64,000 bases of DNA, taken from assembly GCA_002869165.1 (NCBI GenBank), contig PKTK01000002.1, forward strand, positions 1,235-65,234, given 5' to 3'. Shown one piece after another: positions 4,255 to 23,822 of this stretch. The stretch is from Candidatus Parcubacteria bacterium. Lineage in GTDB: Bacteria; Patescibacteriota; Patescibacteriia; Patescibacteriales; UBA12075. The notes under the pieces were generated by a model that saw nothing but the letters and a program-made list of their open reading frames with translations, was not told where the DNA came from and ran no database searches. Numbering within the stretch: the stretch's first letter is position 1; each line of letters opens with the position of its first letter. Made by a program: the position numbers and the translations under genes.

Positions 4255-5466
4255 TTATACTATTTTTCTAAAATGAAGTTTTCCTTTTTGCAGAACTCTT
4301 TCTTTGTCTTCTGGTTCTAACTCAAAGTTTTCATCTGTAATCTGTTCGCCATCCAATTTAACCCCACCCTGTTTTATCATTCTCCTAGCTTCTGATTTTG
4401 AAGCAACTAGCTCTGAGTCAAACAAAACATCGATCAAACCTTTCTTCTCTGTTAATTTATATTCTGGGATATCTGTAGGAATTTCTTTTTTCTGAACTGT
4501 TGATACAAATCTTTCCTGAGCTTCCTGAGCTGCCTCTTCACAATAATTGGCTTTTACTATTTCAAAAGCCAATTTCATTTTCATGTCTCTTGGATTGGTC
4601 TTGGGATCTTCCAATTGTTTGTATATTTCCTTCACTTCCTCAAAACTAACTTTGGTAGCTAGCTCGAAGCCAACTCCTATAACACCATCAGCCCAAGACA
4701 TCACCACTCCATACATATTTGCTGGATCCTGATCTAGAAACACTGCATTCCCCTCGCTCTTACCCATTTTCTTTCCTGAGTCATCAGCCAAAAGTTTCAT
4801 GGTCAAAACAAACTTTTCTTTCTTGCCTTCGGCTTTCATGAGGTCTCTGCCAGCCATCATATTGAACATCTGGTCATTACCACCGATTTCCAAATCTACA
4901 TCCATAGCCATAGAATCATAACCCTGAGCCAAAGGATACAAAAACTCATGCAAGTGAATTGGTTTTTCATCCTTGAGTCTTTGTTGAAACATGTCTCGCT
5001 GAATCATTTGCTGAACAGTGAAATTACTTGAAACTTCAATCAAATCTTTGAATGTTAACTTATCACTCCATTCACTATTATATTTAACAAGAGCTGGATT
5101 GTCACCATCAAATTTCAAATATCCATTGGCCTGATCTTTATAGCTTTTGGCATTTTCTAGCACTTCTTCACGAGTCAGCTTCTTTCTGGTCGCTGACTTA
5201 TCAGTTGGGTCACCAATCATGCCCGTAAAATCTCCAATCAAAAATATCACTTCGTGTCCAAGTTCCTGAAACTGAGCAAGTTTATTTATTTGAATAGCAT
5301 TACCAATATGAAGTGATGGAGCACTTGGATCAAAACCACAATACAAACGAATCCTATCTCCGCTCATTAATTTTTTCTTCAAATCTTCTTTATTTGGATA
5401 GATTTTTTCAACACCTCGTTCAAGTAAATCATCAATTTGTTTTTCATCTGTGATAACTTTGGTCAT
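4255..5466 (-). CDS. tyrS: tyrosine--tRNA ligase
   Basis: HIGH-type motif PSLHIGN, KMSKS-type KKMGKS, and a C-terminal S4 domain (SKSEARRMIKQGGVKLDG). Confidence 0.93.
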   Translation of the reverse strand: MTKVITDEKQIDDLLERGVEKIYPNKEDLKKKLMSGDRIRLYCGFDPSAPSLHIGNAIQINKLAQFQELGHEVIFLIGDFTGMIGDPTDKSATRKKLTREEVLENAKSYKDQANGYLKFDGDNPALVKYNSEWSDKLTFKDLIEVSSNFTVQQMIQRDMFQQRLKDEKPIHLHEFLYPLAQGYDSMAMDVDLEIGGNDQMFNMMAGRDLMKAEGKKEKFVLTMKLLADDSGKKMGKSEGNAVFLDQDPANMYGVVMSWADGVIGVGFELATKVSFEEVKEIYKQLEDPKTNPRDMKMKLAFEIVKANYCEEAAQEAQERFVSTVQKKEIPTDIPEYKLTEKKGLIDVLFDSELVASKSEARRMIKQGGVKLDGEQITDENFELEPEDKERVLQKGKLHFRKIV

Positions 5467-7115: not shown

Positions 7116-7286
7116 CTACACAGTGATAGCTTGCACTGGACAAGCATCTTTGGCTTTTTCGGCGCATTCTGAATTTGGGTCTATTACTTCTGATTTTCCA
7201 TTTGCACCTAGTTTAAAACCTGCGGGACACATTGCTACACATGCTCCGCAACCAATACATTTATCAAGATCAACTTGTGATGGCAT
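7116..7286 (-). CDS. 4Fe-4S ferredoxin (56 aa)
   Basis: My own translation: MPSQVDLDKCIGCGACVAMCPAGFKLGANGKSEVIDPNSECAEKAKDACPVQAITV. It has CxxCxxCxxxCP plus a distal C...CP. It falls below the ORF-track size cut-off. Confidence 0.8.
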   Translation of the reverse strand: MPSQVDLDKCIGCGACVAMCPAGFKLGANGKSEVIDPNSECAEKAKDACPVQAITV

Positions 7287-7394: not shown

Positions 7395-9572
7395 TTACAC
7401 TTCGGTCTTTCTTTCCTTGATAGGTAAAACAAAGGTGAAAGTAGTTCCCTTGTCTTCTCCTTCACTTTCAGCCCAGATCTTACCATCATGATATTCTATC
7501 ATTTGTTTGGCTACTAATAGTCCAAGTCCGGTTCCTTCGGTATGCTCTAGTGAAGCTGTTGTGCCACGAGAAAATTTCTTGAACATATTTGGCATATCAT
7601 CTTTGGATATCCCAATACCATTATCTTTTACAGAAAATACAAGTGCATTGTCTTTTTCTTTCAGGGTCACTACTACTCTACCTTTGTTTGTGTACTTAAC
7701 AGCATTGTCTATCAAATTCATAACAACTTGTCTGATCTTTTCCTCGTCAATCATTACTTTTGACAATGGTATATTGGGTTTTTTGAATTCTAGTTTAATT
7801 CCCTTGTCCTCAGCATTTCTTTTAATCTCCCAAATCACAGACTCAATCATCTTTTCAAGCTGAATCTCGGTATAGGTAAACTTAAGACGGCCCGATTCGA
7901 TGCGTGAAATATTAAGCAGATTTTCAACCAAACTAATAAGTCGTTCATTGGACTCAAACACTTTCTCAAGTGAATCACGAGATATATCCGGAAATTCACC
8001 GAAGCTCCCTTCCAGCATCATAGAAATATATCCTTTGATAACTGTAAGTGGAGTACGAAGTTGATGAGATGCAATAGAAATAAACTCTGACTTGGCAGCG
8101 TCTAGTTTCTTCAAACGTTCATTAGCCAAACGCAAATCCTTGGTAGCTTTCTTCACTTCTGCCTCCATGCGTTCACCAAAAGACCTAGTCTCTTCATAAA
8201 GCATAGCATTTTCAATCGCAATAGCCGACTGCGCAGATATAATGCTCAAAACTTGCAGATCTTCATCATTATACATATCCCCTGATTCTTTTTGGCCAAG
8301 CACCAATAACCCAACTATCTTATTCTTTACAATCAAAGGACACATTACATCAACATGGAAAGACTCAAGCAATTCAATTGTTTCTTTAGTTTTTTTGTTA
8401 CTATAAAGTGCTTTAAATTCAGAAACAACGATTGGTTGGTTATTCTTTACAAACATTTCATTCATATACTCATTCTCAGGAAAATTTACCCTTCTACCAA
8501 TATTAAAATTTACATTATACTTGGTACTGAAATGTTTCTTATCTTCTTCGTAGGTCAAAACACCAAAAGACTTAACGTGCATAGCTCCATCAATAGCTTT
8601 ATGAATATACTCATAGATCTGATTAATATCCAAAGTAGAACGAAGTCTCTCAGAAATATTTGCAATCACTTTTGAACTATCATAAAGAGATGAGAAGAAA
8701 TACTTATTAGCCACTCGAAAAGACCATTTTCTTACGCTTGGATAAACAGAAATAGCAACAGCTATCAAAGCCAAATCGATAAACAAAGAATATCCACTTA
8801 AAAATATTGAATCATAATATTTTATAATAAATGCAGGGACTAGCAATATTATAATTGATCCGAGCAATACCGAATATCTTCTCATTACGAATTTAATATC
8901 CATTAAGCGATGTTTGATAATTGAGTACACGAAAACAACTGGATATAAAACCACAAAAACATGCCCATAAGGAAGAATATCTATGTCATACCACAAAAAG
9001 AAATTTGTAGCTCCTCCTCCGAAGCCTAAAACTGTCCCAAGTATTACATATTTAATTTGTTCTCTCTTTAGGTTATTAGATTTTCGATATGCACTTACCA
9101 ATAAAGTTAAAGCATAAAAAGTTAAGCCAAAAAAGAAAAAAAATAAATAAAAGGAATACAAAAACCCAGCTTTTGGCCAAAAACTAAAAACACCCTTATA
9201 AGGCTCCACTGTTTTTACCATATAAGGAGAAAATGATAAAAACTCAAAAGGAATAACTAATACATAACAAAAAATTAAAAACTTTTTTAATTTTTTATTT
9301 AACTCAAGCAAAGAAACAATCCAATGAAAATAAAAAATTGGGATCAAGGTAGATCCTATCCCCAAAAAACGAGCCCAAAAAAGAGCCGAAGAATAATCAT
9401 TATAAACACTCAGCCATCTCCAATAAGCAATCATCCAAATAAAGGTGGCAAGTGTAAGGAGAAACAAAGTTTGATTGACAATATTTCTTTTATTCTTGTT
9501 TATAACAAGAACACCAAAAAATAAAGCAATAATAGCTGCTAACAAAGAATAAATTGATAAAAAATGTTGCAT
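7395..9572 (-). CDS. membrane sensor histidine kinase (multi-TM N-terminus, GAF, HisKA, HATPase_c)
   Basis: H-box SHQLRTPLT, N/G boxes DNAVKYT, DNGIGI, GTGLGL, and about 7 N-terminal hydrophobic helices. Confidence 0.88.
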   Translation of the reverse strand: MQHFLSIYSLLAAIIALFFGVLVINKNKRNIVNQTLFLLTLATFIWMIAYWRWLSVYNDYSSALFWARFLGIGSTLIPIFYFHWIVSLLELNKKLKKFLIFCYVLVIPFEFLSFSPYMVKTVEPYKGVFSFWPKAGFLYSFYLFFFFFGLTFYALTLLVSAYRKSNNLKREQIKYVILGTVLGFGGGATNFFLWYDIDILPYGHVFVVLYPVVFVYSIIKHRLMDIKFVMRRYSVLLGSIIILLVPAFIIKYYDSIFLSGYSLFIDLALIAVAISVYPSVRKWSFRVANKYFFSSLYDSSKVIANISERLRSTLDINQIYEYIHKAIDGAMHVKSFGVLTYEEDKKHFSTKYNVNFNIGRRVNFPENEYMNEMFVKNNQPIVVSEFKALYSNKKTKETIELLESFHVDVMCPLIVKNKIVGLLVLGQKESGDMYNDEDLQVLSIISAQSAIAIENAMLYEETRSFGERMEAEVKKATKDLRLANERLKKLDAAKSEFISIASHQLRTPLTVIKGYISMMLEGSFGEFPDISRDSLEKVFESNERLISLVENLLNISRIESGRLKFTYTEIQLEKMIESVIWEIKRNAEDKGIKLEFKKPNIPLSKVMIDEEKIRQVVMNLIDNAVKYTNKGRVVVTLKEKDNALVFSVKDNGIGISKDDMPNMFKKFSRGTTASLEHTEGTGLGLLVAKQMIEYHDGKIWAESEGEDKGTTFTFVLPIKERKTEV

Positions 9573-9622: not shown

Positions 9623-9660
9623 TAAAAAAGCGACTAAAATCTTTTAATGATTTTAGTCGC
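9623..9660 (-). terminator. intrinsic terminator after the methyltransferase gene
   Basis: gcgactaaaatc / gattttagtcgc 12-bp stem with a T-run on the minus strand. Confidence 0.75.
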
Positions 9661-9666
9661 CAAGAA

Positions 9667-10701
9667 TTATTTACGACATACTGCAACCTGATGTATGCCT
9701 AGTGGCTCCAGATAAATTTCTGATTTACCACGAGAAAAACCTGCGTCATCAACAAGGGTTTTCATTTCATCTACTGTTCTGTAAATCATATTCCAAAGGA
9801 GCACCCAATCCAGAAATATCTTTTCTTTATTGGGAATTATATTGCAGGTAAGAAAAACTCCTGAAGCAGGAAGACCATTTTTAATAGCCTTAAACAAACG
9901 AGTCGCCATTGCGTCATCAAGATAATCAAGAAATCCAACCATCTCAACAATGTTTGGTTTAAATGTTTTCAGGTAAGTGAAAGCTCTAGCATATGAAGTC
10001 TTCACAAATTGGAAACAATTAACAATTCCCGCTTCCGTTGCTGCCTTCTTGGCTGCATCCAATGAATCCTGATTTACATCAATTAGAACTACATGAACAT
10101 CTTTATCTGGACACTTTTTGATTGCGGCAATAACCGCGTCAGCAGATCCAGAGGCAATTGAGAGAATTCGGGGATTCTCTTGCTTGGAAATTTCTACGGC
10201 CAAAAGGCCAATTACCATCTTAAGACGATTAGTAACCGCCTGACGATTTTCCATTTTTCCTATCCACCATTTTGTTATGAACCCCTCAAAATTATTCCCC
10301 AAATTAGGGAAAACCCTTTCTTGGTAGTGATAAAAAAGCTCCAAAGAATCACAAGTAGTTGCACCCCACTTTGCCTGAGCATTCCATTTGGAAAAGCCGT
10401 CAACAAACAAAGAAGAGACATGTTTTTTGTTTCTTCCAAGCTTATAGACTGTATAAGGAAAGCCTCGTTTTCTACATTTTTCATTTCTTGTTATCATAAG
10501 AAAGACCAAAAACCCATTTTTGATCATTGCTATGCAGCTAACAAACAAAAGAGTTAACTGATAAAACATACCTGTTTTATTACATTCTCCATTAATTTGC
10601 CCCGCACAAACTTCCGTCAACTGAATTTCTGTTGTAATACTATTTTTCTTTCTTTTGACACACCCTTCATTTCCGATACTAGTAACAATATTAGTAGCCA
10701 T
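9667..10701 (-). CDS. class I SAM-dependent methyltransferase with a Cys-containing, partly hydrophobic N-terminal extension
   Basis: Motif I ILSIASGSADAV, followed by VVLIDVN and VEMVGFLDYL. GAGGG lies 6 nt upstream of the ATG at 10701. The true start could be an internal Met. Confidence 0.7.
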   Translation of the reverse strand: MATNIVTSIGNEGCVKRKKNSITTEIQLTEVCAGQINGECNKTGMFYQLTLLFVSCIAMIKNGFLVFLMITRNEKCRKRGFPYTVYKLGRNKKHVSSLFVDGFSKWNAQAKWGATTCDSLELFYHYQERVFPNLGNNFEGFITKWWIGKMENRQAVTNRLKMVIGLLAVEISKQENPRILSIASGSADAVIAAIKKCPDKDVHVVLIDVNQDSLDAAKKAATEAGIVNCFQFVKTSYARAFTYLKTFKPNIVEMVGFLDYLDDAMATRLFKAIKNGLPASGVFLTCNIIPNKEKIFLDWVLLWNMIYRTVDEMKTLVDDAGFSRGKSEIYLEPLGIHQVAVCRK

Positions 10702-10838
10702 TTTTTCCCTCGCAAAATAATTTAATTTTAAACATCATTTTTTGTTTTTTACTACAAATAAAAAAAGTAAAAATATCTTCTAGCTACTTTTTACCCATTT
10801 TACTTATAATAAAAAGTGTTATTCTTATTAACACTTTT

Positions 10839-10867
10839 ATACTATCACTTTTCAACAATTTTGTCAA
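10839..10867 (-). promoter_or_regulatory. sigma70-like promoter for the methyltransferase gene
   Basis: Minus strand reads TTGACA, a 17-nt spacer, then TAGTAT. Confidence 0.5.
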
Positions 10868-11050
10868 TAGATTTATTAAAAAATCCTAATAAACAACAAA
10901 AAAACAGCTATAATTAGCTGTTTTCTTTATCATATTTTAATTAATCTTACTTTAAATTTATTTTATTTCATTATACATAAAAATCCTCGATAATTATAAT
11001 TCAATAATGCACATGCAATCTATTGGTGTTTTCAATCCCCTGATTTTCAT

Positions 11051-11079
11051 AAAATAAAAAGAGCAGTAAAAACTGCTCT
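11051..11079 (-). terminator. intrinsic terminator ending the peptide-rSAM-GT operon
   Basis: agagcagt / actgctct stem followed by TTTTTATTTT on the minus strand, 5 nt after the GT stop. Confidence 0.75.
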
Positions 11080-11083
11080 TAAT

Positions 11084-12259
11084 TTAAAATAAACGATTAA
11101 TAAATCGACAAACATCATCTACTGGCTTATATGCTCTAGATTCAATTTCCTTTTTCCAATATAAAACATTTTCAGAACATTCACCATCTTCAATCTTTTT
11201 TATAGCGCTAATTAAAGTATCTGGGCTAATTTCTTCAGGAGTTAAAACTAAAGCGCATCCAATTTTTTCTACATTTCTTGCATTATACTCTCTTTCTGCA
11301 AAAGTAGGAATGATAATACTTGTAATACCATTTTTTAAAGCTGTCAAACAGGCTCCGTGACCACCGTGATGTATCATTATTTTACATTTTTTAATAATAT
11401 CAGATTCGGATACCCATTTTTCAATCTTCACATTTTCAGAAACATTAAAATCTGAATAACTAAACCCACCTACCGACACAACTGCCTTGTTCTGGATTTT
11501 TTGGAGAGCCGGGAGAACGTTAGTCATTATCAAATTACCAGAATCTCCTCCCAAATCCTTTGGTCTACCAGGATATACAAAAATCATATCCTTTTCACTT
11601 AAAGAAGAACTATAATCATCTCCTGAGATAATATCATTACCAAGCATTGGTCCCACATAGCAACTATCACTTTTAATAGAGAGAGGATCAACTTCTGGGA
11701 TACTAGGAATTACAGTGATATCTCCCAACTGAATATCCTCAACTTTCTCAATTGAATCTAGGCCATTACTTGATAAAATGCCATTTATACTTTCAGTTAC
11801 TTTTGGCAAAAAGTCTGGAGCTTTTTTCCAATAAACTATATATTTACTTTTACGATTCTGGTGAAAACACGACTGAACAACTGACAAGATAGGAATATTT
11901 AACACTTTGCCTGCCAACATTGCGCTAGTATTAAAATCTACAACCAAAACGTCTGGCTTTATAGTTTTTATAGCCTGAACATACGCCTTGTGCCTTGCAA
12001 AAACAAAATCTCTATCAGACCAATTAAAATCATACAATAACTGATCAAGTGTCCACCAGTCTTGTTTTGGCTCGCCCTTTTGGGGTATGCTAATTGGTGA
12101 GTGAACTTTATAGCCCGCTCTCTTCAAATGATCTACAATGCTTTTCCCACTTACATGAAAAACACTCTTAATGCCATTTTTTTTCAGTTGTTCAGCGACT
12201 GGAAGAGCCCTTATAACTGGCCCCCAACCTGCGCTTAACATGAAATAAACTTTTTTCAT
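11084..12259 (-). CDS. GT1-family (MGT/UDP-glycosyltransferase-like, GT-B) glycosyltransferase
   Basis: C-terminal donor-binding signature HHGGHGACLTALKNGITSIIIPTFAEREYNARNVEKIGCALVL. Its ATG overlaps the rSAM stop (ATGA, 12256-12259). Confidence 0.8.
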   Translation of the reverse strand: MKKVYFMLSAGWGPVIRALPVAEQLKKNGIKSVFHVSGKSIVDHLKRAGYKVHSPISIPQKGEPKQDWWTLDQLLYDFNWSDRDFVFARHKAYVQAIKTIKPDVLVVDFNTSAMLAGKVLNIPILSVVQSCFHQNRKSKYIVYWKKAPDFLPKVTESINGILSSNGLDSIEKVEDIQLGDITVIPSIPEVDPLSIKSDSCYVGPMLGNDIISGDDYSSSLSEKDMIFVYPGRPKDLGGDSGNLIMTNVLPALQKIQNKAVVSVGGFSYSDFNVSENVKIEKWVSESDIIKKCKIMIHHGGHGACLTALKNGITSIIIPTFAEREYNARNVEKIGCALVLTPEEISPDTLISAIKKIEDGECSENVLYWKKEIESRAYKPVDDVCRFINRLF

Positions 12260-13653
12260 ATTTCACTCCTATCATTAATAAATTTAACTCCATAATCACT
12301 TAGTATTGGTAATATCCTCTCAACAAACATCTTATACCTTTCACAAGATTGCTTGTCTTTTGAGTTAATATCTTTAGCTACTAAACGACATCCTACACCG
12401 CAAAATTCAAGCAAATCACAATAAAGACATTCGCTAATATTTTTGATTGGATTATTTTTCATGACTTGCATCTCTTTGCTTTGCCATATTTTTTCTATCC
12501 CAATATCAAAAACATTACCGAAGCTTTTATTCCAACTAGTACAAAACTGCACATTACCATTTGGCTCAACACTACACGCATTTTGCTTATAATCACACAT
12601 CACATTTTCACCAGAAAATATATATGCGGTTTTATCTACCAACATATTTGTGTTAAAAAAACTCTCGACATTTAAAAGCATTTCACTTCCTGCTTGTCTA
12701 TCAATAATATGCTTTCTTATAAGACCCACATATTCATCAAATAGACTTTCGCCACCTACAACCAAAAAATGATTGTCTTTTAAATTTCCAACCAGTCGAC
12801 CAGAAGTCAGTCTCCATCTATCAATTCGAAGACCTAGTAAATAATCATACCAAGCTGCCAAATCCCTAAAATTCTCAGAAGAAATTAAACTATTTACTGA
12901 TATTTTGTAACTAGCGCCTGTTTTCTCACGAATAGACACCATTTTTTTGATAAAACTTACAGTTTTATCAAAAGAACCTCTCCCTCTGTTTTTATCATGT
13001 AGTTCTCTATTGGGGCCATCTAAACTTATATAAAAAGTGGTGGAAATATTTTTATCAATAATAATCGCCACTACCTCTTCTACTATTTTAGACCATATTG
13101 TACCATTTGTGAATATTGCCCCTAATAACATTTCTTCTTTAACAATAGACTTCAATATGTTGGGGAGTGATTTTTCTAGCATAGGTTCGCCACCGCTAAT
13201 GGCTACATTGTACACACCAAAATTTGACAACTCTTTTATTAATCCAATCCACATATGACCATCAACAACTTTGCCAATATTTAGTTTTTCTCCCCTAAAA
13301 CAATGCCGACAAAAATTAGCTAAATTACATCTATTAGTAATATCTAGATGCACTTCTCTTAGCCATGGTTGCTGAGAACATAGTTTAACGGTTATTTCTC
13401 TGTGCTTTTTTATCGGAAGCATTTTAATTATTTCCTCGCTAATAAATAGATCCAAAAAACTCATCAAATCATCTATGTTAACATCAAATTTTTTAGCTAT
13501 TCTAGATACATTATTACTACCATTACAAGCTAATATTATATCTACAAATAAGCTATCTCTCAAAGGGATTATTCTAAACTTTTTTGTATCGACTATATAT
13601 TGATCTCCCTCTGCGCCCCTAATTACAAAACAATCCTTTACCCTTGGATACAC
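12256..13653 (-). CDS. radical SAM / SPASM-domain peptide maturase with an N-terminal RRE(PqqD)-like domain
   Basis: Cluster CNLANFCRHC (CX5CX2C), GGEP, and C-terminal Cys clusters CDYKQNACSVEPNGNVQFC and CLYCDLLEFCGVGC (SPASM). The N-terminal ~90 aa (IVDTKKFRIIPLRDSLFVDIILACNGSNNVSRIAKKFDVNIDDLMSFLDLFISEEII) looks like a winged-helix RRE. I place the start at GTG 13653, preceded by AAAGGAGG. The track start at 13686 lies inside the terminator hairpin. Confidence 0.8.
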   Translation of the reverse strand: MYPRVKDCFVIRGAEGDQYIVDTKKFRIIPLRDSLFVDIILACNGSNNVSRIAKKFDVNIDDLMSFLDLFISEEIIKMLPIKKHREITVKLCSQQPWLREVHLDITNRCNLANFCRHCFRGEKLNIGKVVDGHMWIGLIKELSNFGVYNVAISGGEPMLEKSLPNILKSIVKEEMLLGAIFTNGTIWSKIVEEVVAIIIDKNISTTFYISLDGPNRELHDKNRGRGSFDKTVSFIKKMVSIREKTGASYKISVNSLISSENFRDLAAWYDYLLGLRIDRWRLTSGRLVGNLKDNHFLVVGGESLFDEYVGLIRKHIIDRQAGSEMLLNVESFFNTNMLVDKTAYIFSGENVMCDYKQNACSVEPNGNVQFCTSWNKSFGNVFDIGIEKIWQSKEMQVMKNNPIKNISECLYCDLLEFCGVGCRLVAKDINSKDKQSCERYKMFVERILPILSDYGVKFINDRSEI

Positions 13654-13668
13654 TTTATTCCTCCTTTT

Positions 13669-13698
13669 AAAAAAGCCACACCTCAAAAAAGGTGTGGC
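13669..13698 (-). terminator. intrinsic (probably leaky) terminator between the peptide gene and the maturase gene
   Basis: Minus strand reads GCCACACC-ttttttga-GGTGTGGC followed by TTTTTT. It starts 8 nt after the peptide stop. Confidence 0.75.
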
Positions 13699-13706
13699 AA
13701 ATTTTG

Positions 13707-13814
13707 TTAATCCTGATCCATGTCCACTGAAGCATGTGTGCGTTTTTTTATTTTAATAACACGCAACTTAAAGTTTTTAAGCTTTTTGTTTTTTTCTGTT
13801 CTTTTCAAAATCAT
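13707..13814 (-). CDS. candidate RiPP precursor peptide (35 aa)
   Basis: My own translation: MILKRTEKNKKLKNFKLRVIKIKKRTHASVDMDQD, with TAA at 13709-13707. AAAGGAGG lies immediately upstream; the TTG two codons in has better SD spacing. The position and the downstream leaky terminator are typical of precursor genes. The core is uncertain (see the A7-tract finding). Confidence 0.5.
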   Translation of the reverse strand: MILKRTEKNKKLKNFKLRVIKIKKRTHASVDMDQD

Positions 13815-13898
13815 CACCTCCTTTTCTTAAGTCTGTGTTTGCTTATAATTATTTAATTATGCAAACTTTTATCTATAATGTTAATGACCATTGGCTGA

Positions 13899-13927
13899 AT
13901 ATTACACTATTATCAAACAAAAGTCAA
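13899..13927 (-). promoter_or_regulatory. sigma70-like promoter of the peptide-rSAM-GT operon
   Basis: Minus strand reads TTGACT, a 17-nt spacer, then TAATAT, about 85 nt upstream of the peptide ATG. Confidence 0.55.
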
Positions 13928-13989: not shown

Positions 13990-15351
13990 TTACCTTAAAT
14001 TCTCCTCAAAAAACTTATCCAATTCATCCATTTTCACCCTACTTTGCTCCATAGTATCCCTATCTCTTACAGTTACACTTCCCTCTTCCAGTCCATCAAA
14101 GTCTACTGTTACGCAGTATGGAGTACCGATCTCGTCTTGTCTGCGGTAGCGTTTGCCAATATTACCATTGTCATCAAATTCGCAAGTGAATTTCTTGCTC
14201 AATTCTCCTAATATTTCCTTGGCCTTGGCTACTAGGTCTGGTTTATTTTTTAGAAGTGGAAATACTGCTACCTTGATAGGAGCTATATTTTTTGGAAACT
14301 TCATTACTACTCTATCCTCTTCTTCTGTATAGGCAGCGGTCATTGCAACTAGAACCGATCTATCCAAACCAAAGGTTGGCTCAAGAACGTGTGGAACGTA
14401 TCTGCGATTATTGACCGCATCGAAATATTCAAGCTTTTGATTGGAAAACTTGGAATGTTGTGTGAGATCAAAGTCGGATCTATGAGCTAGACCAGTGATC
14501 TCACCCCAACCAAAAGAAAATTTATATTCTAAATCAACTGTTTTTTGTGAGTAATGAGAAAGTTTGTCTTTGGGGTGTTCGTATCTTCTTAGATTTTCCT
14601 TGTCTACCCCTATAGAAATCAAAAACTCTTCCTGTTTGTCCAGCCATTCATTGAAAAGTGGCTCCCATTTCATTTCTGGATCAATAAAATATTCAATCTC
14701 CATTTGCTCAAATTCCCGAATTCTAAAAATAAAATTCCTTGCTACAATTTCATTACGAAAAGCCTTGCCAATTTGTGCTATACCAAAAGGTACTTTTACC
14801 CTCATAGAATCTGTCACATTTTTAAAATCTACAAAAATAGCTCCAGCAGTTTCTGGTCGCAAATATACTGGTTCATTAATCCCGTTCATTTCGGTCTTGA
14901 ACATCATGTTTAGATTTCTGGCTTCAGTGAAATCCTTGCCTCCGCATTCGGGACACTTATATTCACCTGATTGAAGTATCTTGGTCATCTCATCAAGTTG
15001 TCCTTCTAGATCCTGACCAGTTAATTCCTCAACCAAATGATCTGCCCTAAATCTTTTTTTACATTTTTTACAATCAACCATCGCATCATTGAAACCATCG
15101 GTATGACCAGAGGCTTGCCAAAGCTTAGGATGAAGTAATATTGGTCCATCGATTCCTACCATGTCTGCTCGCTCTTTGACAAACATACTCCACCAAGCAT
15201 CTTTGATATTCTTTTTTAATTCAGCTCCATAAGGCCCATAAGAATAAGCATTGGCAAATCCTCCATAGATCTCACAAGCTGGAAAAATAAAACCACGTCG
15301 TTTAGAAAACGAAACGATTTTTTGCATGGTGTCTTGTTTTTTTTCGCTCAT
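13990..15351 (-). CDS. glyQS: glycine--tRNA ligase (dimeric class II type)
   Basis: MSEKKQDTMQKIVSFSKRRGFIFPACEIYGG..., plus a zinc-ribbon-like insert and a C-terminal anticodon-binding domain. The 73 extra N-terminal codons in the track are the translated T-box and MITE leader. Confidence 0.92.
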   Translation of the reverse strand: MSEKKQDTMQKIVSFSKRRGFIFPACEIYGGFANAYSYGPYGAELKKNIKDAWWSMFVKERADMVGIDGPILLHPKLWQASGHTDGFNDAMVDCKKCKKRFRADHLVEELTGQDLEGQLDEMTKILQSGEYKCPECGGKDFTEARNLNMMFKTEMNGINEPVYLRPETAGAIFVDFKNVTDSMRVKVPFGIAQIGKAFRNEIVARNFIFRIREFEQMEIEYFIDPEMKWEPLFNEWLDKQEEFLISIGVDKENLRRYEHPKDKLSHYSQKTVDLEYKFSFGWGEITGLAHRSDFDLTQHSKFSNQKLEYFDAVNNRRYVPHVLEPTFGLDRSVLVAMTAAYTEEEDRVVMKFPKNIAPIKVAVFPLLKNKPDLVAKAKEILGELSKKFTCEFDDNGNIGKRYRRQDEIGTPYCVTVDFDGLEEGSVTVRDRDTMEQSRVKMDELDKFFEENLR

Positions 15352-15361
15352 ATATCTTGCT

Positions 15362-15472
15362 TTGTCATTCTGGGGCTTCATAGCGGAGCGGAGAAGAACC
15401 CGGAATCCAGATACGTTATTGAATGGTGGATCCCGGGTTCCTTCCGTTTCACTCCAGGACCCAGGATGACAA
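15362..15472. mobile_element. 111-bp GC-rich palindromic MITE-like element (TTGTCAT...ATGACAA) in the glyQS leader
   Basis: Terminal inverted repeats ttgtcattctggg / cccaggatgacaa and inner arms gaagaacccggaatcca / tggatcccgggttccttc. It sits between the T-box terminator and the start codon. Confidence 0.7.
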
Positions 15473-15484
15473 ATAATAATTAAT

Positions 15485-15645
15485 AAAAAAACTCGTTCTA
15501 AGAATCTATTATAAAATAGATTGCTAGAACGAGATTTCTCGCGGTTCCATCTAGCTTCCCTGTCTATCAACAGGGCACCTTGATCTCTAGTAGCTTATCC
15601 ATCTGGAATAAGGGCGCCAATCTCCTCACATAACTACTTATTAAT
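15485..15645 (-). promoter_or_regulatory. T-box riboswitch leader of glyQS
   Basis: Minus strand reads AGCUAGAUGGAACCGCGAGA (T-box; the UGGA bulge fits the UCCA end of tRNA-Gly). GCUAGA can pair with UCUAGC of the terminator 5' arm to form the antiterminator. The terminator is CUCGUUCUAGCAAUCUAUU / AUAGAUUCUUAGAACGAG plus U7. GGC and GGU triplets occur in the stem I region. Confidence 0.8.
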
Positions 15646-18248: not shown

Positions 18249-18446
18249 TTAATTTACTTCCAATTGAAGAATTGCTTTTGGGTGAGCATAAACCTTGGTC
18301 ATTTCATCAATCCAATTCCTTACTTTTTCCTCACTTACCCCCTCTTTAACAGCACCATCAGGACTTATGGACCCTAAATGAAATCTAAAAAAAGGTTTTT
18401 GTTCATCTCTGGAATATTGATCATAACCCCGTACCCTCATCCTCAT
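18249..18446 (-). CDS. small hypothetical protein (65 aa)
   Basis: Start at MRMRVRGYDQ..., preceded by AAGGAGGAG. Third gene of a tightly packed small-gene trio. Confidence 0.5.
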   Translation of the reverse strand: MRMRVRGYDQYSRDEQKPFFRFHLGSISPDGAVKEGVSEEKVRNWIDEMTKVYAHPKAILQLEVN

Positions 18447-18457
18447 TTCTCTCCTCC

Positions 18458-18691
18458 TTATTTTTTCCTCATTTTCCCTACACTCATGATTATCCCGCTT
18501 GCATGCCAAACCATATTTAACACATCTACAACATCCTCAGCTTCTCTATCTGATATCTCATCACTAAAAATACCATCTTCGTTAAATCTACCTCTTGAAT
18601 AAATCAATAGAACAATTCTTTGTGCATCATTGTGCTTTGAAAAATTTTTTATAAACTTTGTCTTTTGTTTAAAATCACAACTTTTTGTCAT
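18458..18691 (-). CDS. small hypothetical protein (77 aa)
   Basis: ATG at 18691 (MTKSCDFKQ...). Gaps to its neighbours are 11 nt and 21 nt. Confidence 0.45.
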   Translation of the reverse strand: MTKSCDFKQKTKFIKNFSKHNDAQRIVLLIYSRGRFNEDGIFSDEISDREAEDVVDVLNMVWHASGIIMSVGKMRKK

Positions 18692-18712
18692 TTCCAAAAT
18701 TTTTCTCCCTAT

Positions 18713-18883
18713 TTATTTTTTTCTTTTTTCATAGCTAAGCATGCCGCATTCATTACTGCATTTTTTATATATCTCTATATTTCCCTTACTTTCTTCTATT
18801 GTTTCAATAATATATCCTTGGCCACATTTTTTACAAACTCCCATTTTTTTTCTTAGATCACAAAACTCGTATGTTTCAGACAT
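18713..18883 (-). CDS. small zinc-ribbon protein (56 aa)
   Basis: My own translation: MSETYEFCDLRKKMGVCKKCGQGYIIETIEESKGNIEIYKKCSNECGMLSYEKRKK, with two CxxC-like pairs. SD is AGAGGAGAGATAA-ATG. Confidence 0.55.
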   Translation of the reverse strand: MSETYEFCDLRKKMGVCKKCGQGYIIETIEESKGNIEIYKKCSNECGMLSYEKRKK

Positions 18884-19126
18884 TTATCTCTCCTCTCTTT
18901 TCAATGAACAGAATAAAAAACCACTCTTTACACAAGAGCAGTCATCTTTTAATAAATTTGAATAAAACTAATCAAAAGAAGCCTGCTCTTTTAAGAGAAG
19001 CAGGTTGACCAGTAACAAAATTGAACTGAAAAACTTTTGACTATTCATATATAAATTTATTAAATGTTTGATAACCGGAAATTTATTAAAATAAATTTCC
19101 GGTCTTTTGTTTACGGAGAGTTTTAG

Positions 19127-19321
19127 CTAGTCTTGCGGACCGCCTAATTGAAAAGAAAAAAATTTCTTTTCTGCTTTTTTTATTTCAAGAAGCTTAGCCG
19201 CTAATCTCCTTTTCTCGAGTGGACAGGTTGCCTCATTCATTCTGGCAAGCAAACATTCACCATTCTTCACAATTCTGTCAAAACTCTCTACCTTTTCCCA
19301 AGTTCCAGCGCCTCCAACCAT
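19127..19321 (-). CDS. small hypothetical protein (64 aa)
   Basis: Start at MVGGAGTWEKV..., preceded by AAGGGGGAAAGT. A terminator-like hairpin follows at about 18975-19010. Confidence 0.5.
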   Translation of the reverse strand: MVGGAGTWEKVESFDRIVKNGECLLARMNEATCPLEKRRLAAKLLEIKKAEKKFFSFQLGGPQD

Positions 19322-19331
19322 ACTTTCCCCC

Positions 19332-19529
19332 TTAAAAAATGTTTGATTTTGCGATTGCTTTTTCAATACCTTTTTTTGTTGTCTTCAATCCGTATTTATA
19401 TTTTTTATAACCTTCAACGTCGCCAGATGCAATTGCCTTTTTAAGCTTAAACTCCAAGGCATTTTGTTGAATTGCTAAATGCCCCAAAACTCCATCACTT
19501 TCCCTACACAAATGACTACCTAATTCCAT
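19332..19529 (-). CDS. small hypothetical protein (65 aa)
   Basis: The ORF ends 10 nt before the next small gene. No recognisable family. Confidence 0.45.
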   Translation of the reverse strand: MELGSHLCRESDGVLGHLAIQQNALEFKLKKAIASGDVEGYKKYKYGLKTTKKGIEKAIAKSNIF

Positions 19530-19837
19530 TTTCTCTCCATTTTAAATGAACGTTTAAATTAAATAAACCGCCTTTTCCCTGGGCGGTTCTTCTTCTTACT
19601 ATTTTGATTTACCGCCCAATTTTATCCATTCTTAATCAGCACCACGTTAGTCATGCCAAAAATAGAAGATAGAGTTGTCCAATAAATATTTTTCATACTT
19701 ATTTAATATTAAAAAAATTTAATGTTTTTGTCAATGCAATATTTAATAGCTAAAATTAGTAAATATTTTTTTATATTTTTAACTATTATCTAATATTAGC
19801 TAGTTTTCCACAATAATAGAGATAACAGGCAAGATAT

Positions 19838-23345: not shown

Positions 23346-23822
23346 TTATGAATGAATCTTTTGAATAAATTCCTTAATCTGCTCTTCGTATGCTTCTTTC
23401 TTAACCTGTAAGGTAGATAAATGTAAATTAGCCATAGATTTCTTTCCCAATTTCTCCTCCATCATACCAAAAATGTTCTCTTGTTTTGGCGGTTCTGCAC
23501 CTTGGGTAATAATTAATGCAACTTCGCCCATATTTTCTTTTTGTTTTTCAATAAAAGTACTTATTGGCACAGAAGGACGCCAAGCCCAAACAGGTGTAGC
23601 CAAAACACACAAGTCATAATCAGCTGGACTTTTATCAAATTCTTCCAACTCGGTCAAAGCTCCTCTCATAGCATCACTCCCGGCAGTCATATAACCTTTT
23701 ATTCCTGTTCGATTTTTTTTATCTTTAATCTCTAAAATATCAGCTGATAATTTTTCAGCTATTTTTTCTGCAATTTTTTTTGTTGTTTGTGTTCGAGAAT
23801 AGTAAATAATTAAAGTTCTCAT
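23346..23822 (-). CDS. flavodoxin-family protein
   Basis: MRTLIIYYSRTQTTKKIAEKIAEKL, an FMN-binding loop-type N-terminus; about 160 aa. Confidence 0.7.
   Translation of the reverse strand: MRTLIIYYSRTQTTKKIAEKIAEKLSADILEIKDKKNRTGIKGYMTAGSDAMRGALTELEEFDKSPADYDLCVLATPVWAWRPSVPISTFIEKQKENMGEVALIITQGAEPPKQENIFGMMEEKLGKKSMANLHLSTLQVKKEAYEEQIKEFIQKIHS

Follow-up and report, generated by a model that had tools for sequence, protein, structure and literature searches.

The minus strand of a 64,000-nucleotide (nt) stretch of DNA from a Candidatus Parcubacteria bacterium (hereafter the window, i.e., the whole of the DNA that was analysed; GC content 33%) carries a compact cassette that probably constitutes a system for a peptide that is made by the ribosome and modified after translation (RiPP). 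It is made up of a precursor gene (25–46 residues in the family as a whole), an attenuating hairpin and a maturase in which a RiPP recognition element (RRE) is fused to a radical S-adenosylmethionine (rSAM) domain and a SPASM domain. This peptide–enzyme pair, which is found again in more than 20 other uncultured bacteria, very probably represents a real, still unstudied family of enzyme-modified peptides, and it shows what is generally expected of a RiPP, i.e., a conserved precursor that adjoins a modifying enzyme and is composed of a leader and a conserved core. The initial annotation, which had been made from the letters of the window, placed a peptide open reading frame (ORF), a hairpin, the rSAM gene, a glycosyltransferase (GT) gene, a terminator and a methyltransferase (MT) gene one after the other, and every one of these elements was recovered in its place on the minus strand (Table 1).

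The family was delimited with the rSAM protein, a search with which retrieved 22 further full-length homologues (29–49% identity) from Curtissbacteria, Uhrbacteria, Paceibacterota and other Patescibacteria metagenome-assembled genomes (MAGs), as well as from unnamed metagenome contigs. Further loci (cited below by L numbers) came from genome and metagenome collections, including two Lachnospiraceae MAGs and one MAG labelled 'uncultured Bacilli', and an exhaustive hidden Markov model search yielded about 50–60 full-length rSAM clusters (at 50% identity) with E < 1e-70. The closest homologues of both the rSAM protein and the GT belong to MAGs of Curtissbacteria, Buchananbacteria, Uhrbacteria and Paceibacterota, which, like the GC content, lends indirect support to the earlier description of a cassette in a reduced genome of the candidate phyla radiation (CPR) type. 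However, a confinement of the family to the CPR does not stand, for the rSAM–peptide family also includes Lachnospiraceae and other Firmicutes-like loci.

The precursor gene of the window is a 35-codon ORF (MILKRTEKNKKLKNFKLRVIKIKKRTHASVDMDQD) running from an ATG at 13814 to a stop at 13709..13707, and it was found as placed in the initial annotation, behind a Shine-Dalgarno (SD) sequence (AAAGGAGG, 13824..13817). Its exact start is ambiguous: a GTG at 13817 overlaps the SD sequence, the ATG at 13814 lies just 2 nt past GGAGG, and a TTG at 13808 stands at the ideal spacing of 8 nt. The earlier reading had been made to depend on a short ORF with a conserved C-terminus upstream of the rSAM homologues, and a short ORF with the same core is indeed present 40–130 nt 5' of the rSAM gene in every locus with upstream sequence and an rSAM identity of at least 29% (>20 loci). 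In the window peptide, the leader motif is F-K-L-R-V and the core K-R-T-H-A-S-V-D-M-D-Q-D, whereas the family core reads K-R-T-x-[AS]-[AS]-V-D-[MR]-[DE] followed by 1–5 residues (examples from other loci are …KRTHASVDMDQD, …KRTYSAVDRDIEVW, …KRIYAAVDMDDIW, …KRMSAAVDMDMPD and …ARTLKASVDSGGPED). Only the Val-Asp dyad, which in the window corresponds to Val30-Asp31 (encoded at 13727..13722), is invariant across the family precursors; the position three residues ahead of the Val is occupied by H, Y, F, Q, N, S or K, depending on the member. The leader carries a [FY]-x-[ILV] motif at a fixed distance, 15 residues ahead of the invariant Val. Precursors of the subclade that also encodes a GT (see below) all end in VDM[DE]Q(P)D, and more distant enzymes (26–33% identity) are accompanied by related ORFs in which [LM]-N replaces V-D (e.g., …KLRVIRKHKNIKAMLNDSGDGA). 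The window peptide contains no Cys, as had been read from its translation, and other precursor cores are likewise devoid of it, Cys being found sporadically and in leaders only. No further copies of the core motif occur in the window or in the loci of the GT subclade.

A profile built from 14 of these peptides and searched against 5.8 billion proteins retrieved 26 peptide clusters (E down to 9e-11), all of them unnamed or annotated as 'hypothetical', and ten precursors compared with NCBIfam (release 20.0) gave no match at E up to 10. The window and L007/L097 encode one and the same 12-residue core, although eight synonymous (and no non-synonymous) differences separate their sequences, and all four Val codons are in use across the loci. 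Since the divergence is synonymous only and the Val codon is free to vary, the core is selected as a protein rather than as DNA or RNA, and the short ORF is a real, conserved gene.

The maturase is opened by GGAGG (13664..13660), a 6-nt spacer and a GTG at 13653, and the N-terminus of the resulting 465-residue protein is the same in the public gene call P0001 and in the 22 homologues. Both of the domains proposed initially score above the Pfam gathering cut-offs, with 58.6 bits against 29.5 for PF04055 (1e-15) and 35.4 bits against 21.5 for the SPASM model PF13186 (1.4e-8). The non-canonical CX5CX2C cluster motif noticed in the initial annotation is real (C109, C115 and C118, at 13329..13300), and its three Cys are invariant across the 23 members of the family. 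Their spacing, by contrast, is polymorphic, being CX5CX2C in 11 members (window included) and CX3CX2C in the other 12; as about half of the family keeps the canonical CX3CX2C, the window motif is best understood as a loop insertion of two residues. Such a polymorphism within one orthologous family offers a useful case for studying how far the cluster loop tolerates change. Towards the C-terminus, the Cys clusters are of the SPASM type, as had been proposed, with seven invariant Cys in the canonical CX9-15GX4C…CX2CX5CX3C…C arrangement (C353-x12-G366-x4-C371, C409-x2-C412-x5-C418-x3-C422 and C437). An eighth Cys, C359, is found in 19 of the 23 members, the other four having V, I, M or L in its place, and a C-[DE]-Y-K motif is invariant at residues 353-356.

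The AlphaFold2 (AF2) model of the maturase (pLDDT 93.2, pTM 0.91) contains an N-terminal domain with strands at residues 9-14, 17-22 and 28-31 followed by helices at 34-42, 49-55 and 60-72, i.e., a beta3-alpha3 winged helix, in agreement with the winged-helix-like character previously ascribed to the first ~90 residues. When aligned by hhalign with the PqqD-annotated N-termini of distant homologues, this domain matched with a probability of 91% (E = 9e-7). The expected RRE is therefore supported at the level of the predicted fold, and at the sequence level is not yet fully proven. The best NCBIfam matches of the rSAM protein (in the window and six other members) are StsB, ScmE, WgkB and MftC, all far below their cut-offs; for the seven members compared with release 20.0, the best match reached at most 130 bits against cut-offs of 265–850. 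A profile search of PDB sequences placed SkfB, SuiB, PqqE and CteB first, with TigE matching from residue 10 onward. Similarly, Foldseek aligned the model over ~480 columns with SkfB, SuiB and CteB, N-terminal domain included, whereas the anaerobic sulfatase-maturating enzyme (anSME) ranked lower and aligned over the ~390-column catalytic core only. Because the matches to SkfB, SuiB and CteB extend over the full length, RRE included, the enzyme is of the peptide-maturase type; all three rankings group it with peptide maturases rather than with anSME, the grouping on which the earlier reading had been made to hang.

This evidence also bears on the idea that the short ORF does not encode a substrate at all, being either a leader with a regulatory function or a product of chance, and that the enzyme matures instead a protein or a non-peptide substrate in the manner of anSME. 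Although anSME is a good fold match for the catalytic and SPASM part (target-normalised TM-score 0.72-0.74), the ORF is kept at the amino acid level across phyla with purely synonymous divergence, the window enzyme has an RRE-like domain where anSME has none, and no sulfatase or comparable target gene lies nearby, so that this idea is extremely improbable. Membership in anSME itself was set aside on account of the additional RRE-like domain, the lack of a sulfatase gene and the absence of a (C/S)-x-(P/A)-x-R motif from the peptide.

The SPASM domain weighs as well in the choice between reaction types. The main mechanistic alternative is that the enzyme is a peptide epimerase of the YydG/EpeE epipeptide type, which would convert Val and/or Asp to the D-form and leave a protease-resistant peptide of unchanged mass. 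EpeE/YydG is among the sequence and fold matches, the core has no obvious cross-link partner, and YydG reportedly modifies Val and Ile residues of a core that likewise lacks Cys. However, the EpeE matches extend over the core only and fall well short of the matches to SkfB, SuiB and CteB. Moreover, the SPASM domain is complete, with seven Cys for two auxiliary clusters, and the sole candidate for a hydrogen-donating Cys, C359, is replaced in 4 of the 23 members. As the SPASM domain is complete and C359 is not invariant, epimerisation is rated lower than an oxidative modification and appears rather unlikely.

Between the precursor and the rSAM gene, the canonical hairpin and T6 tract that had been reported were confirmed as a GC-rich 10-bp stem (13698..13675) followed by T6 (13674..13669), with a folding free energy of -18.5 kcal/mol and a z-score of -5.2 against shuffled sequences. 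Of 21 loci, 18 have a stable hairpin at this point, its sequence differing each time, and the order of precursor, attenuating hairpin and enzyme can on that account be regarded as a conserved unit. The hairpin is presumed to be an attenuator, read-through of which would set the ratio of precursor to enzyme. Terminator-like sites are enriched in the region at large (11 against 3.2±2.1 in shuffles). Promoter-like matches, on the contrary, are about as frequent as shuffling of such AT-rich DNA would produce (33 found, 31±6 in shuffles); thus the TTGACT-17-TAATAT promoter claimed upstream of the peptide is present at 13927..13899, as a 9/12 match, but its statistical weight is nil and it is no evidence when taken alone.

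The third gene of the cassette encodes a GT of the GT1 family, as the initial annotation had it. Its Pfam matches include PF06722 (EryCIII-like_C, 1.4e-18) and PF00201 (UDPGT, 2e-11), it aligns over residues 10-369 with the MGT model TIGR01426 (1.4e-22, below cut-off), and the nearest PDB sequences are YjiC, OleD and CalG1. The stop codon of the rSAM gene overlaps the GT start by 4 nt (ATGA, 12259..12256), as noted before, and the GT is translationally coupled to the maturase. Wherever rSAM identity is at least 44%, GT orthologues (45–64% identity) stand directly 3' of the rSAM gene (L006/L097 from Buchananbacteria, L007, L083/84, L085 from Curtissbacteria, and L086/87), and the 4-nt overlap is common to 4 of these 6 GT-subclade loci. 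Conversely, GT homologues with no more than 40% identity are not accompanied by an rSAM gene, and the more distant rSAM members have no GT. Since its orthologues lie directly behind the rSAM gene and share the overlap, whereas its distant homologues occur apart from rSAM genes, the GT is a genuine, subclade-specific partner of the maturase, and a GT1 coupled to an rSAM maturase is an unusual tailoring pair. Glycocins likewise combine a ribosomal peptide with a dedicated glycosyltransferase in one operon. The glycocin transferases SunS and ThuS, however, are GT2 enzymes whose targets are Cys, Ser or Thr in peptides that carry no other modification, in contrast to the macrolide-type GT1 of the window (nearest structures YjiC, OleD and CalG), which is coupled to an rSAM gene. 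The terminator described behind the GT gene is present (11080..11059). A second hairpin follows it, and two tandem terminators 3' of the GT are an odd arrangement; between them lies an 18-codon ORF (MKIRGLKTPIDCMCIIEL, 10994..11050, minus strand) that has no SD sequence and is probably spurious.

The MT fared differently. The presence of a class I MT downstream was corroborated (PF12147, 33.5 bits against a cut-off of 21), and a TTGACA-17-TAGTAT promoter match lies ahead of it at 10867..10839. By contrast, tblastn with the window MT found no match in any other locus, and its sole relative is a remote MT in L086 (19% pairwise identity over 195 residues, E = 4e-7) that occupies the same position, directly upstream of a kinase gene. 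In L085 an unrelated gene takes the MT position as the third gene. Thus, of the co-localisation in relatives expected for both tailoring genes, the GT part holds at rSAM identities of at least 44%, and the MT part comes down to the single remote homologue in L086, on which ground the MT was rejected as a conserved member of the cassette. Judging by this distribution, the window MT is accessory, and its link to the cassette is no more than loose. Unrelated class I MTs also flank the rSAM gene in L005, L012 and L023; they may be independent recruits, and methylation may be a recurrent but non-orthologous kind of tailoring.

A GT and an MT next to an rSAM/SPASM enzyme call to mind mycofactocin, which is glycosylated by MftF and methylated by MftM at late steps. 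It could accordingly be proposed that the product is a peptide-derived cofactor or intracellular metabolite like pyrroloquinoline quinone (PQQ) or mycofactocin, in which the Val-Asp core is modified, excised by cellular peptidases, glycosylated, methylated and used within the cell. Mycofactocin shares with the window a short precursor with a conserved C-terminal, Val-containing core and an rSAM/SPASM enzyme (MftA/MftC); the best full-length NCBIfam matches include MftC (TIGR03962), which ranks first for P0016, and PqqE is also close. In line with an intracellular role, the CPR cassettes lie in housekeeping operons with neither exporter nor protease, and small ferredoxin and flavodoxin-like genes are close by. 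However, mycofactocin systems have a separate MftB where the RRE is fused here, as well as MftD and MftE genes that are missing here, and MftF is a GT2 rather than a GT1. The MftC scores (66–109 bits) are far below the cut-off of 265, the peptide has neither a C-terminal Val-Tyr nor a Glu/Tyr pair, the residues behind the core vary in count and sequence, and there are no equivalents of MftB/D/E or PqqB/C and no co-occurring partner dehydrogenases. In addition, the exporters and RRNPP receptors of the Firmicutes-like loci are typical of secreted peptides. MftC membership was therefore rejected (score below 265, peptides ending in varied acidic tails, no mftB/D/E neighbours), as was PqqE membership, on scores and precursor features, and a cofactor role as such is quite unlikely.

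Among characterised systems, the closest are those of SkfB (sporulation killing factor), SuiB/StrB (streptide) and CteB (a sactipeptide), which share the winged-helix RRE, the partial TIM-barrel rSAM domain and the seven-Cys SPASM domain and which likewise have a small precursor gene directly upstream, with a hairpin between precursor and enzyme genes. Their identity to the window enzyme is only 15-21%, however, and they differ from it in having CX3CX2C rather than CX5CX2C and in lacking the coupled GT1. Moreover, the chemistry of SkfB and CteB needs a core Cys and that of streptide a Lys/Trp pair, neither of which the window core offers. A sactipeptide or ranthipeptide was hence rejected, with no core Cys in the window or the other precursors, and thioether chemistry is excluded as initially argued. 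Cyclophanes of the streptide, darobactin, ryptide or triceptide type would call for a conserved aromatic residue (Trp, Tyr, His or Phe) joined to a side chain near it; as no aromatic residue is invariant in the family, such chemistry is unsupported. As the precursor is Cys-free and has no invariant aromatic residue, Val-Asp alone being invariant, the chemistry of the enzyme is unlikely to be one of the known cross-links.

The cyclopropylglycine synthases TvgB and TigE (PMC10878394; PDB 8VPO) resemble the window system in their RRE–rSAM–SPASM architecture and in a conserved aliphatic Val/Ile within a Cys-free core, and TigE is a significant sequence and fold match, RRE included. In these enzymes a GYW motif is strictly conserved and family-specific, its Tyr ligating Aux I, and the precursor repeats a Val/Ile-containing motif (PMC10878394). 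Assignment to this class was rejected, as GYW is absent from the alignment, with the invariant C-[DE]-Y-K in its stead, and the core is single-copy rather than tandem. Another comparison is with the RaS-RiPPs, i.e., the quorum-sensing-regulated rSAM RiPPs of streptococci (PMC9389541), whose layout recurs in the Lachnospiraceae loci L003 and L004 (an HTH and TPR/RNPP_C regulator, a short precursor, an rSAM/SPASM enzyme and a transporter of the major facilitator superfamily (MFS)). The window, in contrast, has a 7TM-GAF kinase in the place of an RRNPP regulator and exporter, and the hosts of the family include the CPR. With no adjacent RRNPP/Rgg-type regulator and no exporter, the window does not qualify as a quorum-sensing-regulated RaS-RiPP, and none of the subfamilies that the review mentions by name in its text (PMC9389541) is that of the VD[MR]D motif.

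Searches of the full-text literature for the core motif returned nothing relevant, the accessions OGD83010, A0A1F5FTS3, KKS26208 and KKT76457 occur in no paper of the searchable literature, and papers combining CPR or Patescibacteria with RiPP and radical SAM were general surveys only. In agreement with the earlier remark that the combination is not a described class, no curated NCBIfam family scores above its cut-off and no matching paper was found. Given that it falls outside all named classes tested and is absent from the searchable literature, the family is best described as an uncharacterised one, although the kind of system to which it belongs is well known; rSAM-RiPP families that await characterisation are numerous. 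Its unusual features are the core in which Val-Asp alone is invariant, the cluster-loop polymorphism, the coupled GT1, the CPR hosts, and the kinase and synthetase neighbours.

A plausible course of events is that the [FY]-x-[ILV] strand motif of the leader docks on the N-terminal winged-helix RRE, as the fixed spacing of the motif and the fold of the domain suggest. The rSAM site would make a 5'-deoxyadenosyl radical, which would abstract a hydrogen within the invariant Val-Asp dyad, and the two SPASM auxiliary clusters would accept the second electron, giving a net two-electron oxidation as in related SPASM peptide maturases. By analogy with the structurally closest enzymes, the product may contain an intramolecular cross-link or a dehydrogenation at Val/Asp (-2 Da). 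In the subclade of the window, the coupled GT1 would then glycosylate the modified peptide, and the MT could act as an occasional additional tailoring enzyme. That the peptide is the substrate of the enzyme, at which site and in what manner it is modified, and what role it plays are points that we infer from sequence and neighbourhood.

Table 1. Features of the cassette and its surroundings in the 64,000-nt window.
Feature	Coordinates	Strand	Basis
Sigma-70-like promoter match TTGACT-17-TAATAT	13899..13927	-	Assigned by position only
SD sequence and precursor peptide ORF	13707..13824	-	ORF scan; homologous short ORFs in >20 loci
Intrinsic-terminator-like hairpin and T6, presumed attenuator	13669..13698	-	Folding energy against shuffles
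SD sequence and RRE–radical SAM–SPASM maturase, 465 aa, GTG 13653	12256..13664	-	Pfam, homologues, AF2, Foldseek
RRE-like winged-helix domain, residues 1 to ~92 of the rSAM protein	13378..13653	-	AF2 topology, hhalign
Radical-SAM cluster motif C109-x5-C115-x2-C118	13300..13329	-	Alignment
SPASM domain, 7 invariant Cys and C-[DE]-Y-K (residues 353-356)	12343..12597	-	Pfam, alignment
GT1 glycosyltransferase (GT-B, MGT/YjiC/OleD-like)	11084..12259	-	Pfam, NCBIfam, PDB-sequence search
Hairpin terminator 3' of the GT	11059..11080	-	Terminator scan; second hairpin at 10898..10927
Class I SAM methyltransferase (PF12147)	9667..10701	-	Pfam; terminator at 9629..9661
HisKA_7TM–GAF–HisKA–HATPase sensor histidine kinase	7395..9572	-	Pfam; orthologues in other loci
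Glycyl-tRNA synthetase (GlyRS), directly upstream of the cassette	13990..15570	-	
Tyrosyl-tRNA synthetase (TyrRS)	4255..5466	-	

Beyond the MT lies a sensor histidine kinase gene, not included in the initial annotation, that directly follows it and whose 7TM–GAF architecture is the same in the linked orthologues. These (38–48% identity; L085, L086, L012 and L094/L017) lie on the same strand as the cassette, 0–4 genes and less than 6 kb away, so that the linkage extends to five CPR loci with the window included, and even to L094/L017, in which the rSAM protein is only 29% identical. The kinase is thus better conserved as a neighbour than the MT, and it is possible that it serves as a receptor or regulator of the peptide. 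In the Lachnospiraceae, human-gut and other Firmicutes-like loci, further candidates for sensing and export are found: L003 and L004, both from Lachnospiraceae, encode HTH_3+TPR/RNPP_C regulators together with MFS transporters, L009 likewise encodes an MFS transporter and L011 an ABC exporter; L004 and L010 in addition encode an AsnB-like enzyme. The window, for its part, contains no RRNPP regulator and no exporter. In view of the 7TM-GAF kinase in the CPR loci and of the RRNPP-type receptors and MFS/ABC exporters in the Firmicutes-like loci, the most likely product is an acidic peptide of small size that is secreted or sensed and has a signalling function or some bioactivity.

Several further genes lie in the surroundings. 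Immediately downstream of the kinase, a 56-residue 4Fe-4S ferredoxin is encoded (7116..7286, minus strand), and a flavodoxin-like gene is found at about 23346..23822; either could be an electron donor for the rSAM enzyme. Six small called genes (24–77 residues; 18249..19696, minus strand) stand in a row between an M20/M28 peptidase gene and ndk, with no Pfam match and no likeness to the precursor seen. Additional radical-SAM or SPASM genes occur near the cassette in several other CPR loci (L006 1754-3190 and L097 329-1765, where the gene is accompanied by a RimL-like GNAT, L085 9199-10518, L001 3259-4515, and L023 1639-3006 and 9477-10640), and in L085 and L023 the second enzyme genes are preceded by short ORFs that contain Cys, which suggests separate systems of the sacti- or ranthipeptide kind. 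Peptidase_S66 genes (LdcA/MccF family) were seen near the cassette in L094 (2584-3564) and L023 (8414-9406), and near a GT homologue that has no rSAM neighbour in L098 (8056-9144).

A recurrent surrounding of the cassette, likewise not noticed in the initial annotation, is formed by aminoacyl-tRNA synthetase genes, which in roughly every second distinct locus flank it directly. Genes for valyl-tRNA synthetase (ValRS) make up the majority and are located downstream in L001 and upstream in L002/L090, L088, L102 and L015. L094/L017 has a methionyl-tRNA synthetase (MetRS) gene upstream and a ValRS gene downstream, the latter across a 16-nt gap; L019 has a leucyl-tRNA synthetase (LeuRS) gene downstream, across a 17-nt gap, the Lachnospiraceae locus L003 a threonyl-tRNA synthetase (ThrRS) gene downstream, and the window its GlyRS gene. 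By a rough calculation that assumes genomes of 700–1000 genes, ~20 of which encode synthetases, about one such neighbour would be expected among the loci. In addition, a RelA/SpoT-type (p)ppGpp synthetase/hydrolase gene directly follows the rSAM gene in L088 (1923-3359) and lies nearby in L095 (14009-15413). An HD_4 fragment was also noticed near the cassette in L086 (4005-4295).

It is striking that ValRS is found on either side of the cassette beside a peptide whose core is Val-Asp, and one could suppose that the product is tied to translation, either as a synthetase inhibitor or mimic against which the adjacent synthetase, S66 or GNAT genes would confer immunity, or as a signal of amino acid starvation that is expressed along with synthetase and RelA/SpoT genes. 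The frequency of flanking synthetases, the ValRS placement next to an invariant Val-Asp, the RelA/SpoT genes adjacent in L088 and nearby in L095, the Peptidase_S66 (MccF family) genes in L094 and L023 and the RimL-like GNATs in L097/L006 would all fit such a role. Nevertheless, the synthetase specificities differ (Gly, Val, Met, Leu and Thr), a mixture that argues against a simple immunity-gene reading, and the flanking genes are probably housekeeping copies, since a second, resistant synthetase gene is hardly to be expected in a CPR genome of such small size. Some of the loci with ValRS upstream probably share ancestry (L002, L090, L088 and L102 may go back to a single arrangement), and no adenylating (MccB-like) enzyme is present. 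The only T-box found (L090 2425-2632, 124 bits) has an apparent GGU (Gly) specifier and does not adjoin the cassette, being followed by a TnpB/IS605-OrfB-like fragment, a 299-residue gene, ValRS, the precursor and the rSAM gene; with its apparent Gly specificity and its distance of two genes from ValRS, it was rejected as a link between ValRS and the cassette. A product tied to translation is therefore very unlikely as an explanation of the family.

Several observations weigh against the interpretation of the cassette as a RiPP system with a secreted or sensed product. The connection of the peptide to the enzyme is drawn from sequence and gene context. The Pfam PqqD model (PF05402) has no match in the window protein and gives weak matches in 3 of 18 members, in spite of the RRE-like fold. 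No known rSAM cross-link chemistry can be assigned to a core that is free of Cys and in which neither an aromatic nor a hydroxyl residue is invariant. Neither a dedicated leader protease nor an exporter is found in the window or in the other CPR loci, and the CPR cassettes lie inside housekeeping operons beside synthetase genes, which is unusual for a secondary-metabolite locus. Likewise, the substrate of the GT could be a molecule different from the peptide, and the linkage of the kinase could reflect inherited gene order instead of a functional connection. A modified peptide made by the RRE–rSAM–SPASM enzyme nonetheless remains the probable reading of the cassette.

A bolder proposal is that the enzyme carries out an unprecedented radical modification of an unactivated aliphatic–acidic dyad (a cross-link or ring joining the Val side chain to the adjoining Asp/Asn, or else adenosylation), and that the glycosylated product is coupled to translation, either as a mimic directed at ValRS or as an amino acid starvation signal read by the 7TM-GAF kinase. 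We consider it unlikely, although not negligibly so; if true, the coupling to translation would account for the position of the cassette between synthetase and RelA/SpoT genes in CPR genomes that are otherwise minimal.

The potential importance of the family lies in its chemistry and in the synthetase link. Radical-SAM/SPASM RiPPs have repeatedly been a source of new peptide chemistry, and the present system, which comprises no more than the peptide, a single enzyme and a single GT, is experimentally tractable, occurring in CPR bacteria and human-gut Lachnospiraceae alike. To our knowledge, very few signalling systems or natural products based on dedicated peptides have been described from the ultra-small bacteria of the CPR. 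In this regard, the recurrent placement beside ValRS and other synthetases offers a hypothesis of a link to translation, and the linkage of the 7TM–GAF kinase offers one on peptide signalling in episymbiotic bacteria.

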